Notes under the pieces: model-generated
Seen by the model: only the letters and a program-made list of their open reading frames with translations
What the model was told of the DNA's origin: nothing
Database searches by the model: none
Assembly: GCA_041687695.1 (NCBI GenBank)
Contig: JAWLBL010000027.1
Span: 53,754-117,753, forward strand
Direction: 5' to 3'
Length of the DNA: 64,000 nucleotides
Source: Myxococcota bacterium
GTDB lineage: Bacteria > Myxococcota_A > UBA9042 > PHBI01 > JAWLBL01
Part shown: positions 30,342 through 34,023 of the stretch, piece after piece
Position numbering within the stretch: position 1 is the first letter of the stretch
Layout: every line of letters starts with the position of its first letter
Translations under genes and position numbers: made by a program

Positions 30342-31694
30342 ATGTTCACTCTGGTCATCGAAGACAAGAACGGCGCCGTCGCCGACGAGTACACGTTCGA
30401 GGACGGCGAGTTCCTGATCGGGCGCAGCCAGAGCGCCGACATCGTCCTGCCCTCGGACAACGTGTCGCGTCGCCACGCGCGGCTGTATACCGTCGACGGC
30501 AAGTGCTACATCGAGGACCTCGGCTCGGCCAACGGCGTGTTCGTCAACGGCCGGCGCATCCACGAGGTCTTCCCGATCGAGGGCTCGGCCCAGATCAAGG
30601 TCGGCGACTACTTCCTGCACATCGACAGCGACACGGCCAGCGCCGCGGCGCCCGTCGATCGCGTGCTGGTCAAGCTGCACGGGCAGAACCTGGCCTTCAC
30701 CGACCAGGTCTATCGCCTCGAGAAGGCGACGACGTTGGTGGGCCGCGGCAAGGACTGCGGCCTGACGCTCATCGATCCGAGCATCAGCCGCATCCACGCC
30801 AAGCTCACCTTCGAGCGCGGCGGCCGGCTGACCATCGAGGATCTCAAGAGCTCGAACGGCAGCTTCATCAACGGCGAGCGCATCACCACCGGGACGGCCG
30901 GGCACCGCGATACGGTGCGCTTCGGCAACGCCGACTTCATCGTCGAGATCCCCGAGGCCGCGCCCACGTCCTCGCCGACCGCCCGCGGGCGGCAGGCCTC
31001 GTCCGCCGACATGGCGGCCTGGGGTGCCCCGCCCAAGAAGTCGCGCACGGGACTGTGGGTCGGGCTGAGCGTCTTCTTCGTGCTGGTCATCGGCGGCGGC
31101 GCGACGTGGTTCTTCTTCGGCGACAAACTGTTCGGCAAGCCGCAGGCCGAGGAGGCCAAGTCGGCGACCGTCACGCCCGAGGACGAAAAGGCGCAGAAGG
31201 AGGCCGACAAGGCCAAGGAGGAGGCCGAGCTCAAGGCCGAGGAGATCCAGCTCCTGAGCGACCAGGGCACCGCGGCGGTCAAGGGCCGCGAGTGGGACAA
31301 GGCCCTGACCTCGTGGGAGGGCGTGCTCGAGCGCGATCCGCTCAACGAGACGGCCCAGAAGGCCATCAACCAGATAAAGACCTGGCAGAAGCACCAGGAG
31401 ACCCTCGAGTCGGCTCGCAAGCTCCGCAAGGACAAGAAGTACGCCGAGGCCGCCAAGGCCCTCCGCGAGATCGGCGAGGGCAGCGTCTACCACGCCGAGG
31501 CGCAAGAGGAGATCGGTCTCCTCGTCGAGATGAAGGGCTCCCTGGTCATGCAAGCCGACGCGATGGTCAAGTCGCGCGACTGCGACGGCGCCCTCAAGCT
31601 CTACAAGGAGGCGGTCGTCCTCGACCCCCGCGACGCGGTCCTCGTCGAGAAGATCAAGGACGTCGAGAAGCTGCCGGCGCGCAAGTGTAAGTAG
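30342..31694 (+). CDS. Double-FHA protein with a TM helix and TPR-like periplasmic domain
   Basis: Two FHA motifs (IGR..VSRRHA..DLGSANG; VGR..ISRIHA..DLKSSNG), one TM, then helical repeats. Confidence 0.88.
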   Translation: MFTLVIEDKNGAVADEYTFEDGEFLIGRSQSADIVLPSDNVSRRHARLYTVDGKCYIEDLGSANGVFVNGRRIHEVFPIEGSAQIKVGDYFLHIDSDTASAAAPVDRVLVKLHGQNLAFTDQVYRLEKATTLVGRGKDCGLTLIDPSISRIHAKLTFERGGRLTIEDLKSSNGSFINGERITTGTAGHRDTVRFGNADFIVEIPEAAPTSSPTARGRQASSADMAAWGAPPKKSRTGLWVGLSVFFVLVIGGGATWFFFGDKLFGKPQAEEAKSATVTPEDEKAQKEADKAKEEAELKAEEIQLLSDQGTAAVKGREWDKALTSWEGVLERDPLNETAQKAINQIKTWQKHQETLESARKLRKDKKYAEAAKALREIGEGSVYHAEAQEEIGLLVEMKGSLVMQADAMVKSRDCDGALKLYKEAVVLDPRDAVLVEKIKDVEKLPARKCK

Positions 31695-31713: not shown

Positions 31714-31750
<37 letters not shown>

Positions 31751-31788
31751 AGGCGGCTGAGTCTGAGCCTAGAGGCCGGTTTGGAGTG

Positions 31789-32798
31789 GGGGTAGCCTCC
31801 GCTCCGGCCGGCCTCGAGCGTTTTAGTCGCCTTGCGGCGACGAAAACGCTTGACCCCGTCCTCCGCTGCGGCTGGGGGCTGATATGGCCCGGAACGGGGC
31901 GTTCCGGGCCGCGGTGCGTCCCGTACGCCTCGGCGACTGGGCGCAGCCCTTACCTCGTCTCCCAGCCTGGCAACTTCCTCCGGGAATTAAACACCTAGCC
32001 AATTAGCCGTTCCGGGACGACGGGCTCGGCGAGGCTTCCGCCCCGGGGCGGGGCCATCGAACGCCCAGGTCATTGGTCGTCCCTGGACGAACGGCCTGCC
32101 TGGGCTTCCGCCCCGGGGCGGAGCAATTGGACGCCCATACAATTTGTCGTCCCGGGACGACGACGGACGCCTGAGCTTCCGCCCCGGGGCGGAGCCATGG
32201 AACAAGCAGCCAATGAGTCGTCCCGGGACGACGACGGACGCATGGACTTCCGCCCCGGGACGGAGCAATTCAACGCCCATACAATTAGTCGTCCCGGGAC
32301 GACGACAGCTGCCGGGACTTCCGCCCCGGGGCGGAAAGCAGAATCCAGGTTCTCGTACCGGGACGACGGTGCCCGCCAGCCGGGACTTCCGCCCCGGGGC
32401 GGAGAGCAGAATCCAGGTTCTCGTCCCGGAACGACGACGACCGCCTTTGGCCCTCCGCCCCGGGGCGGAGAGCAGAACACAGGTTCTCGTACTGGGACGG
32501 CGACGACCGCCTGGGCCTCCGCCCCGGGGCGGAGAGCAGAATCCAGGTTCTCGTACCGGGACGACGAACCTTCTCCTCCGCCCCGGCACGGAAGCCGTGA
32601 ACGCGTGAGCGTCGCATCTAGCGCAGGCTCCCAACTCGAGACACCCACGCCGGCCACCGGCCGGGACGCCCCGCGGCCCGGAAGGTCCCCTTCCGGGCCG
32701 ATATCGGCCCTCCAGCCGCAGCGGAGGGCGGGGTCAAGCGTTTTCGGCGCCGTCAGGCGACCAAAACGCTTGAGGCCGACCGGAGCGGAGGCTACTCC
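31789..32798. mobile_element. ~1 kb non-coding unit bounded by ~135-bp imperfect inverted repeats (MITE/REPIN-like)
   Basis: 31789-31923 matches the reverse complement of 32662-32798 over its whole length with scattered mismatches; no target duplication seen; no transposase in the window. Confidence 0.6.
31984..32592. repeat. Tandem array of 9 units (59-71 bp) with two alternating palindromes
   Basis: C(T/C)TCCGCCCCGGGGCGGAG at 32035, 32105, 32176, 32247, 32318, 32386, 32452, 32516 and 32575 (degenerate), alternating with GTCGTCCCGGGACGAC variants. Confidence 0.9.
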
Positions 32799-32844
32799 GA
32801 CCGACCCCACGACCCAAATCTGCGCCGCCAGCTTCCCAAGCAAG

Positions 32845-33245
32845 GAGCCCGCGCGAGCGCGGGCGTTCCAGCTTCCCCAACCAAGGAGCCCGCGCGAGCG
32901 CGGGCACTCCAGCTTCGCCAACCCATGAGCCCGCGCGAGCGCGGGCACTCCTAGCGGCGGAGAGCTGCAACCTGGTGGCGCGAAAGCCCGCGCGAGCGCG
33001 GGCACTCCAGCTTCGCCAACCCATGAGCCCGCGCGAGCGCGGGCACTCCTAGCGGCGGAGAGCTGCAACCTGGTGGCGCGAAAGCCCGCGCGAGCGCGGG
33101 CACTCCAGCTTCGCCAACCCATGAGCCCGCGCGAGCGCGGGCGCTCCTAGCGGCGGAGAGCTGCAACCTGGTGGCGCGAAAGCCCGCGCGAGCGCGGGCG
33201 CTCCAGCTTCGTCACCCCAAGAGCCCGCGCGAGCGCGGGCACTCC
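32845..33245. repeat. REP/BIME-like array: 9 copies of a GCCCGCG-CGAG-CGCGGGC hairpin
   Basis: Copies at about 32845, 32886, 32927, 32984, 33025, 33082, 33123, 33180 and 33221 (spacing 41,41,57,41,57,41,57,41); 98-bp higher-order unit. Confidence 0.9.
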
Positions 33246-33399
33246 AACCGGCGGAGAGCCTTGGCCTCTCACTCCGCGGTCTTCGGTTCGCCACGGCCAC
33301 GCTCTCGGCATCCTCGTCGCTCCCGAAACGCAAGAGGCCGAGCCCCCAAGTGGGACCCGGCCTCGGTGCGGACGGACCGTCCAGACGCCGCGCGGCGGC

Positions 33400-34023
33400 C
33401 TACTCGGCGTCGGGCTTGTTCACCTGCTTCTCGATGCGCTCGAGGAGGGCGTCGAAGCCGCTCTTCTTGACGATCTTGGAGAACTGACCGCGCCAGTTGA
33501 TGGCCATCGAGACGCCGTCGACGACGATGTCGCCGGCGCGCCACTCGAGCTTGCCGCCGACCTTCACGGGCTCGAAGAGGTAGTCGACGTCGGCGGCGGC
33601 CTTTTCGCCCGCGACGGTCGTCTTCACCTCGGCCTTGGCGCCGTCGTCGGCGAAGACCGTGTCGCCGCGGTAGGAGACGGTGAACTGGGCCTTGGGCTTG
33701 AAGCGCTTGGCGTAGTTCTTGATGACGAGGCGCCGGAAGAGGGCCTTGAACTTCGCCTGCTGCTCGGGGGTGATCTCGTCCCAGGTGGCGCGCAGGGTCT
33801 TCTTGGAGAAGGCGTCGTAGTCGACCAGGGCGTCGAAGTGGCCGGTGATGTCCTCGACGAGCTTGTCGCGGGTGGTCGCCGCGTCGACCGACTGCTTGAT
33901 GACCGCGTAGGCGCGGTCGACGTTCGCCTTGGGGTCGCCCGCGGGCTTGTCGGCGGCGGAGGCGACGCCGGCGAGGCCGAGGACGAACAGGGCGAGGAGG
34001 ACGGCGGGGAACACCTTGCGCAT
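33400..34023 (-). CDS. mlaC: MlaC/Ttg2D family periplasmic lipid-binding protein
   Basis: Signal peptide; VDY..FS..TL...W....PEQ...F..LF; VDY; W...DIVVDGVS....WR.QF..I. Confidence 0.85.
   Translation of the reverse strand: MRKVFPAVLLALFVLGLAGVASAADKPAGDPKANVDRAYAVIKQSVDAATTRDKLVEDITGHFDALVDYDAFSKKTLRATWDEITPEQQAKFKALFRRLVIKNYAKRFKPKAQFTVSYRGDTVFADDGAKAEVKTTVAGEKAAADVDYLFEPVKVGGKLEWRAGDIVVDGVSMAINWRGQFSKIVKKSGFDALLERIEKQVNKPDAE

Follow-up and report, generated by a model that had tools for sequence, protein, structure and literature searches.

The window analysed here is a 64,000-nt stretch of a Myxococcota bacterium, positions 53754-117753 of contig C27 (JAWLBL010000027.1) in a 7.97-Mb draft genome of 63 contigs with 73% G+C (G000). 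Positions 31786-32801 of the window hold a cassette without a gene. It belongs to a family of composite elements, specific to this genome, that has roughly 30 loci. Full-length members of the family are probably an undescribed kind of selfish DNA element. In the full form, the outer half consists of a G-rich tract, a 163-nt module, about 100 variable nts, an AATT box, and an array of CCCGGG-centred palindromes. The centre carries a conserved leader of about 250 nts and a gene for an HNH nuclease of about 385 amino acids, and the far half mirrors the first, with an array, a module, and a C-rich tract. Of these parts, the window copy has retained the modules and the arrays, two of each, and is missing the leader and the gene. 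We read the cassette, with a probability of roughly 0.55, as a non-autonomous derivative of the selfish HNH element, spread by nuclease- and recombination-driven copying, and we infer that the family is mobile.

The family was delimited by searching the genome for the module with BLAST, with an nhmmer profile, and with a covariance model (R1, built from 18 copies), all of which agree. There are 41 full modules and 2 truncated by contig ends, 43 in total with both window modules included. Another 20 weak matches are the palindromic stem seen on the opposite strand. Module pairs 2.0-3.2 kb apart flank an open frame of 384-392 amino acids. The HNH protein is encoded at 22 loci, at 57-87% amino acid identity to the contig C4 copy, and four of these have an in-frame stop in the matched stretch. 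Five loci are complete two-ended elements (C4:340441-343055, C6:74790-77988, C11:165323-167987, C22:25757-27748, and C33:12448-14955). Six more have arrays on both sides of the gene, but are cut by a contig end or miss one module. These two groups are the copies with a nuclease between the same ends that the initial annotation, made from the window alone, had proposed to look for. Ten loci are one-ended, with a module and an array upstream. In all ten, the gene is directed away from the module, the module is in sense with the gene, and the array lies upstream of the leader; homology between copies ceases at the 3' end of the gene, often at a single copy of P1, one of the array palindromes. One last locus is close to a contig end and has no detected module. 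An element lies within about 500 nts of 14 of the 126 contig ends.

At 21 of the 22 HNH loci, a conserved leader precedes the start codon (for example C4:340967-341212, or about 668-913 in locus L001). Across 15 aligned copies from both protein subfamilies, which span the 57-87% range of amino acid identity, it includes near-invariant stretches. The alignment has a weak consensus fold (-22.5 kcal/mol), and the leader may be a cis-regulatory element or an RNA. Besides the window, three other loci have neither the gene nor the leader: C7:201564-202475, C3:293117-295046, and C47:29731-30290. The C3 cluster has one module facing three tandem array-module repeats, and the C47 locus has two direct modules that are 99% identical. 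The C3 and C7 arrays use the unit type found in the right half of the window array, and their modules group with those of the window in the module tree.

The window cassette includes the following features, in window coordinates.

31786..31923, forward strand: left terminal module of about 138 nts, a short variant of the 163-nt family module; its parts, from alignment A2, are a long hairpin at about 31814-31853, a second hairpin at about 31886-31910, and the tail GCGTCCCG.
31924..31984, forward strand: variable spacer from the module to the AATT box, unconserved in the 36-copy module alignment.
31985..32008, forward strand: AATTAAAC-N8-AATTAG box at the array start, kept in that position in most family members.
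32006..32335, no strand: left sub-array made of five 70-71-bp P2/P1 units, whose linkers are of the AATT type.
32336..32592, no strand: right sub-array, four P3/P2'/P1 units of 64-68 bp and a terminal degenerate P1.
32593..32661, no strand: variable spacer ahead of the right module.
32662..32801, reverse strand: right terminal module, inverted, with a covariance-model score of 125.9 bits and a DNA fold z of -5.83.

The left module has a covariance-model score of 118.8 bits and a DNA fold z of -3.79, with none of 200 shuffles as good. The two inverted modules of about 135 bp that the initial annotation had described are borne out by a repeat search, which finds outer arms of 93 nts (31786-31878/32709-32801) and inner arms of 38 nts (31886-31923/32662-32699), both 89% complementary. 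The claim that the cassette encodes no credible protein also holds, as none of the five open frames across the array has a match in Pfam. A search of the window for the leader finds nothing at E ≤ 10, and the cassette likewise has no HNH gene. That no nuclease is nearby is right within the window; elsewhere in the genome, the same ends do enclose a nuclease gene.

Tandem Repeats Finder (TRF) reports 5.0 copies of period 71 (31985-32335) and 4.1-4.3 copies of period 64-68 (32289-32567). The array had been described as nine units of 59-71 bp. There are indeed nine units with CCCGGG-centred palindromes, each of 64-71 bp; no 59-bp unit is seen. Motif mapping places the palindrome P1 (TCCGCCCCGGGGCGGA) at 9 window sites, 6 of them perfect, and P2 (GTCGTCCCGGGACGAC) at 8 sites, 3 of them perfect, with one more degenerate copy near 32486. 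The two occur in strict alternation, in agreement with the initial annotation, which had also correctly distinguished two linker subtypes: linkers contain AATT in the left five units, and AGAATCCAGGTTCT in the right four. The AGAATCCAGGTTCT linker is itself a third near-palindrome (P3) that had been missed. Palindromes deviate from consensus at about 3-8% of positions (hand count) while whole units match at 76-83% (TRF), so the palindromes are better conserved than the linkers, as first reported.

Genome-wide, P2 (33 copies) and P1 (15 copies) are the commonest perfect 16-nt palindromes, and the next commonest has at most 5 copies. The arrays are not dispersed independently of the modules, as ordinary repeats, which would have refuted the initial annotation: all 39 clusters of at least three palindrome sites are within family loci. 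Arrays are typically 100-150 nts inside a module, and each one either adjoins a module or sits across the HNH gene from one.

The modules have a conserved structure. RNAalifold on alignment A2 gives an imperfect hairpin of about 110 nts and a 12-bp hairpin, followed by the conserved tail. Standard pairs occupy 98% of the pair cells of the consensus structure, and 13 of the 53 pairs have two-sided changes, compared to 5.6±1.4 in shuffled alignments (0/500 reach 13) and at most 3 in controls with slid partners. The module hairpins are kept by compensatory changes, many of which are GC to CG swaps. Folded as single-stranded DNA, modules beat their shuffles (z of -3.8, -5.8, and -5.2). On the inward-reading strand, there are 16 G-U cells versus 5 A-C or C-A cells, a weak hint of a strand bias.

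The 36-copy alignment has a sharp outer homology edge at GGTAGCC, and it reads inwards as module, about 100 variable nts, a AATTAAAC-N-AATTAGT box, and the first palindrome. Outside that edge, the flanks are oriented. In the 100 nts outside the module, G minus C on the inward strand is at least 0.15 in 26 of 40 copies and reversed in none, where random windows give 12%. The genome has 123 tracts with at least five runs of four or more Gs, and the 16 that are within 400 nts outside a module all have the G strand directed into the element. Of the 13 longest tracts prone to form G-quadruplexes (G4), ten sit at modules. Examples of these flanking tracts are C4:343073-343197, C8:248590-248756, and C6:74689-74775, with repeat units that vary by copy. 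Two-ended elements have a G-rich tract on both flanks, which indicates that the tracts belong to the inverted architecture and did not come from a microsatellite that was there before and was split by an insertion.

Several traces of recombination are visible in the modules. In both window modules, the long hairpin is shorter by the same 30 nts, a private change that comes with a re-paired and compensated stem. The two match each other best, at 88% identity, with a median of 64% to all others. The mutual match together with the common private shortening indicates that the two arms evolve in concert. Concerted evolution is not universal, as the C4 element and the C6:74790 element have left and right modules of different lineages. 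Between C4:340441-343055 and C6:74790-77988, modules match across elements at 93-97% identity and the HNH gene has opposite orientations; a gene flipped relative to the module lineages indicates an inversion of the internal segment between the arms. The tandem modules of the C3 cluster are 92-97% identical, and apart from such local tandem duplications (C47 at 99%, C3 at 92-97%), no recent event is visible. At five loci, the first 24-53 nts of the module are duplicated 20-65 nts outside the full module (C3:293018-293069, C33:12341-12383, C9:2214-2260, C13:400-449, and the outer flank of C2:186700-186865). At C3 and C2 at least, part of the outer flank is duplicated along with the module start. 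These partial duplicates could be the footprint of slippage or of abortive copying at the long hairpin.

The HNH protein is identified by its C-terminus, which matches Pfam PF01844 in the two G000 proteins scanned (E-values 1.6e-4 and 2.8e-3); neither matches Pfam DUF222. The NCBIfam IscB model matches the HNH part only (model positions 177-242 of 314, at 30 bits versus a cut-off of 175), and the HNH domain is nearest in sequence to that of IscB and Cas9 (E of about 0.05 against PDB). A protein search finds 178 relatives. Among those listed, most are on short metagenomic contigs, only a few kb long, and the small number with a name go by HNH endonuclease or McrA. Across 81 aligned homologues, E40, R44, P136, R298, C303, C312, H322, H344, and N345 are invariant, and we take the invariant Cys, His, and Asn positions of the HNH region to be the catalytic and metal-binding residues. 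Pfam matches among the 81 are to HNH (PF01844) in 55, to DUF222 in 7 (E ≤ 0.01, best 3.2e-4), and to RuvA_C in 6. One neighbouring Atlas cluster is 23% DUF222, and the nearest clusters are commonest in Myxococcota, Acidobacteriota, and Bdellovibrionota. PADLOC has no family for the three proteins submitted, PHROGs returns generic HNH families only, and a tblastn search of plasmids with the HNH protein has no match.

The AlphaFold (AF2) model of the protein has a mean pLDDT (the predicted local confidence score) of 85, and Foldseek finds no match to it in PDB at E ≤ 0.001. Compared by parts with VIA-align, where a Z below 8 often reflects no more than a common arrangement and the fold matches are weakened accordingly, residues 26-136 resemble KorB (8qa8_A, Z 7.1, root-mean-square deviation (rmsd) 3.7, 97 aligned), ParB (6s6h_B, Z 7.0, rmsd 8.0, 113 aligned), and Spo0J (1vz0_A, Z 6.2, rmsd 2.9, 91 aligned). 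Under the same reservation, residues from about 190 to 242 resemble ribbon-helix-helix (RHH) folds (3no7_B, Z 5.1; 7wj0, Z 4.8; TraM 3omy_B, Z 4.4; NikR 1q5v_A, Z 4.3; 46-58 aligned), and residues 275-354 resemble HNH nucleases (5h0o_A and 6ghc_B, both Z 7.6) and the IscB HNH domain (9nvu_P, Z 6.9). The protein is thus modelled with a ParB/KorB-like N-terminal domain, an RHH-like middle, and an intact HNH domain. The predicted homodimer scores 0.73 versus 0.00 for the best of three controls, a mark reached by 20 of 30 known one-chain pairs and by 1 of 23 known single chains. Homodimer runs agree in at least 70% of contacts, with a partner pLDDT of at least 62 and an interface of residues 5-46 and 60-69, which supports the prediction of a homodimer. 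All 12 full-length paralogues examined are open. Their ratio of nonsynonymous to synonymous substitution (dN/dS) is 0.22-0.66 with a median of 0.41 (66 pairs), and the smallest dS is 0.30, from which it follows that the genes are under purifying selection and that the duplications are old.

Matches to the HNH protein are found in 12 of 40 relatives, with many per genome in G011, G015, G020, and G025. In G011, which is from a different family of the same order, eight of the nine HNH loci (L011, L020-L027) are within inverted repeats of 217-425 nts, unrelated in sequence to the module, with two or three hairpins each. The palindrome CCCCGGGG is present at 9/9 G011 loci, as are tandem AGTCCCCGGGGACT palindromes near the HNH gene; these are just outside the inverted repeats where such repeats are present, not inside. 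Further afield, a pattern search of public genome contigs with one HNH protein gave 126 pattern matches, none confirmed, and a module pattern of 22 specified bases found one locus in metagenome contigs, which is not a module. The 18-mer CCAATTCCTCGCGGACGA of the module loop occurs once each in 76 public genomes of many phyla (L053-L128), where about 17 are expected by chance by our own arithmetic. None of the 76 loci matches the module covariance model, and the excess is likely to come from codon-biased coding sequence.

The cassette is in the spacer between two convergent genes, in the order FHA-T2SSE, FHA-TPR (forward), MlaC (reverse). Outside the cassette, this region includes the following features.

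30342..31694, forward strand: FHA-FHA-TPR gene of the left flank (Pfam FHA, E 1.6e-36), with its stop 92 nts before the left module.
31714..31757, forward strand: (GGC)n tract just outside the left module (TRF period 3, 14.7 copies), G-rich on the strand that runs into the element.
32828..33259, no strand: separate tandem array with the palindrome GCCCGCGCGAGCGCGGGC (TRF period 98, 3.8 copies, 97% matches; period 41 at the left edge).
33334..33364, reverse strand: terminator-like hairpin of mlaC, 13 bp, just past the stop.
33400..34023, reverse strand: MlaC gene of the right flank (Pfam MlaC, E 1.4e-31), convergent with the FHA-TPR gene.

The 1706 nts of the FHA-TPR/MlaC spacer hold, besides the 1016-bp cassette, the (GGC)n tract on its left and, on its right, an unrelated array of 430 bp and the terminator-like hairpin of mlaC. 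The array at 32828-33259 is unrelated to the cassette and outside the element; across the genome, GCCCGCGCGAGCGCGGGC occurs exactly at 23 sites, which form 8 clusters, and the matching arrays on C21, C29, C39, and C47 adjoin no module. A match to the Rfam family Pxr at 33326-33417 on the reverse strand (30 bits versus a gathering score of 80) overlaps the hairpin of mlaC and is probably merely that terminator. Neighbours from 27 to 38 kb of the window are ThiG, TMP-TENI, two FHA proteins, MlaC, and an NAD-binding protein. None of these neighbours is a cas or effector gene (no cas search of the whole genome was made). Of 20 relatives searched, 19 have an orthologue of the FHA-TPR gene, and in five of the nine loci fetched it is convergent with and adjacent to MlaC. 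The spacers of those five relatives are about 37, 55, 327, 395, and 427 nts long and unrelated in sequence. The initial annotation had suggested looking here for an empty site. The short spacers go part of the way: they show a lineage-specific gain in the window spacer and no precise empty site, because the five relatives are distant and from other families. In the genome G010, the orthologous spacer (L037, 2812-3205) holds a (TTGCCC)n microsatellite, and this convergent spacer seems to collect lineage-specific repeats.

Among the options that the initial annotation had offered, a non-autonomous mobile cassette is the one we favour, as the same ends enclose an HNH gene elsewhere in the genome. 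The window cassette would descend from a full element that lost the segment between its arrays in an internal deletion, for which the palindromic units can act as direct repeats. The arrays would be iteron-like binding sites of the dimeric element protein, through its modelled ParB/KorB-like helix-turn-helix (HTH) and RHH-like domains. Single array units fold no better than shuffles as DNA (z of -0.7 and -0.9), which fits duplex protein sites better than structural hairpins; it is also one of the results that count against the favoured reading. A protein-binding platform, another of the options offered, is compatible with this scheme and probably part of the mechanism, given the predicted domains and dimer. 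The structured modules and the G tracts would be where the HNH domain or stalled replication nicks to start copying. The family would persist and spread as selfish DNA via nuclease- and recombination-driven copying between family loci, by homing-like gene conversion, by flip-flop between inverted arms, and by local tandem duplication. [quoted passage not shown] A more specific proposal, which we put forward tentatively and hold to be a good deal less probable, is an unrecognised class of bacterial selfish elements without a classical transposase. In this class, a dimeric HTH/RHH-HNH nuclease would bind the arrays, cut at or near the hairpin modules with their G4-prone flanks, and drive homing-like copying, arm conversion, and inversion; as an "empty" or non-autonomous member, the window cassette would be a target or a passenger.

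Several results weigh against mobility by this route. No target-site duplication is found at the 8 end pairs inspected, where the flanks are G-rich tracts with inverted symmetry. No dispersed copies are near-identical, and nothing hence points to a recent transposition: between the closest HNH paralogues, dS is 0.30 and amino acid identity 87%, and the window modules have a median identity of 64% to the rest. HNH by itself is not a known transposase. The ten one-ended copies terminate exactly at the 3' end of the HNH gene, which a simple transposon with two terminal inverted repeats (TIRs) does not predict. The genome G011 is without gene-less copies, and 17/17 of its modules adjoin HNH genes. 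The HNH loci examined in G034, G015, G020, and G022 have no long inverted repeat around them, so that a bracket of inverted repeats is no general property of this protein family. Last, the covariance model does not find the module among the best 150 candidates per genome in 17 other genomes of the order, and no close relative shows an empty or a filled site.

Some of these results are also what an inert relic would leave, that is, the remnant of an HNH element that lost its gene, immobile, functionless, and decaying in a tolerant convergent spacer. The window modules are the most diverged of the family (that median of 64% to the others), dS between the closest HNH paralogues is at least 0.30, target duplications are not seen, and other unrelated repeats occur in the same spacer both here (32828-33259) and in relatives. 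We consider a relic unlikely. The arms share private stem-pairing changes and are mutual best matches at 88%, which needs ongoing homogenisation or selection; P1 and P2 are near-perfect where whole units match at 76-83%; and gene-less cassettes at three loci have a common unit subtype. The cassette could also serve for binding alone, as a domesticated platform without mobility, in which iterons, a decoy, or an insulator titrate or position HNH/HTH-RHH proteins or block read-through between FHA-TPR and mlaC. The modelled KorB/ParB-like and RHH-like domains in a symmetric dimer would suit such a role, as do sites that are tandem 16-bp palindromes, a cassette placed between convergent genes, and an array that is upstream of the HNH leader in 10/10 one-ended loci, as for an operator. 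A platform leaves unexplained the structured terminal modules, the oriented G tracts, the sharp outer boundary, and the upkeep of 22 paralogous nuclease genes, and we find it rather improbable.

The covariation of the stems would also be expected of a transcribed structured RNA, in which an inward transcript includes the module and the small hairpins, and the modules pair as a panhandle of about 138 bp that is processed into unit-length RNAs. The excess of G-U cells on the inward strand (16 versus 5 A-C or C-A), a weak bias, and the module in sense with the HNH gene in 10/10 one-ended loci go in the same direction. We give this reading little credence: the GC to CG compensatory swaps are equally explained by a DNA palindrome, and the linkers are related repeats, not spacers. 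No Rfam family matches at threshold; over the window region and three full elements (L001, L004, L011), there are only sub-threshold chance matches, with no HEARO or omega-RNA, and sigma-70 promoter scans find no sigma-70-like promoter. Palindromes that alternate with linkers recall the arrays of bacterial interspersed mosaic elements (BIMEs), built of repetitive extragenic palindromes (REPs), and one could have REP/BIME-type palindromes mobilised by a RAYT (Y1) transposase with an incidental link to HNH. The genome does have 10 Y1_Tnp matches above the Pfam cut-off (of IS200/IS605 or RAYT type, several of them on short contigs such as C40, C48, C54, C59, and C61, among others). These Y1_Tnp genes are unrelated to the HNH elements, the nearest one to any element being beyond about 16 kb. 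The reading fails and is very improbable, since neither palindrome is scattered over the genome (15 perfect copies of P1 and 33 of P2 in all, 39/39 arrays in family loci) and no Y1 gene is adjacent. An assembly artefact, a collapsed or chimeric repeat, is hardly plausible. Family elements do break the assembly at 14 contig ends; the cassette, in turn, is interior to a 127-kb contig, its units differ (76-83% matches), and its arms are only 88-89% alike, differences that let short reads place units and arms. Two more candidates were discarded. A CRISPR-like guide array, an analogy loosely drawn by the initial annotation, does not hold, since the linkers recur as two subtypes and are not spacers. 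Integron attC sites were dropped as there are no gene cassettes between the hairpins (no integrase search was made).

At the level of titles and abstract openings, the literature gave no account of HNH genes that stand between structured inverted repeats with palindrome arrays. The closest known systems each share part of the architecture. MITEs with an internal minisatellite have been reported (PMC4596501). The window cassette is like a MITE in being non-coding and intergenic, with terminal inverted repeats and a tandem array between its ends, and in having longer, putatively autonomous counterparts elsewhere in the genome, with ends of the same family and a nuclease gene (the five complete elements enclose the HNH gene). 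It differs in that the partner encodes an HNH nuclease and not a DDE, HUH, serine, or tyrosine transposase, that no target-site duplication was seen at the 8 pairs inspected, that the ends are structured hairpin modules of 138-163 nts and not short TIRs, and that family copies are old and diverged, with oriented G tracts outside the ends. Another comparator is the REP/BIME elements and their RAYT genes (PMC2817692). Like them, the family has GC-rich palindromes that alternate regularly with linkers and a nuclease gene flanked by its own palindromes in an inverted arrangement; unlike them, it has palindromes confined to about 39 arrays and not at hundreds of dispersed sites, and the associated gene is HNH, in 22 copies, with the Y1 genes non-adjacent. 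RAYT genes are generally few per genome.

On the protein side, DUF222-HNH proteins, of the type of the mycobacterial REP13E12 repeats, are also multi-copy proteins of about 400 amino acids with a helical N-terminal part and a C-terminal HNH domain. The HNH domain of the window family has the invariant C303, C312, H322, H344, and N345, and DUF222 matches are weak, in 7/81 members, with the G000 proteins scanned below the Pfam DUF222 threshold. A free-standing HNH homing endonuclease is also a selfish nuclease gene, and its break-induced copying into gene-less alleles is what we propose here; gene-less cassettes with the same arms exist, and the window cassette would be such an allele. The difference is that these "alleles" are dispersed paralogous cassettes and not one conserved host gene, and that cleavage is putative. 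IscB/OMEGA and IS200/IS605 elements have in common with the family an HNH domain nearest to that of IscB/Cas9, hairpin-forming ends, and a conserved non-coding leader. The HNH protein differs from them in having no RuvC domain, no HEARO or omega-RNA match in Rfam, and no adjacent TnpA. Finally, in partition and iteron systems (ParB/KorB with parS/OB, or the RHH proteins ParR/ParG), dimeric HTH or RHH proteins bind palindromes of 13-16 bp or tandem repeats beside their own gene. The element protein, modelled as a dimer with HTH and RHH domains and with palindrome repeats beside its gene, would be similar; it differs in being fused to a nuclease, without a ParA partner, chromosomal, and in 22 copies.

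The pairing of oriented G tracts with structured inverted repeats is unusual, and with it, the way in which G4 or hairpin DNA is tied to recombination could be put to a direct test in a bacterium. If the favoured reading is true, the element protein would be a compact fusion of a sequence-specific palindrome-binding part to a nicking or cutting domain, and the family would help account for assembly breaks in these GC-rich genomes. A large and widespread group of proteins named "HNH endonuclease" or "hypothetical" (178 matches) would gain a genomic context and a testable role, and the bacterial mobilome would gain a form of repeat proliferation driven by a nuclease that is not a transposase.

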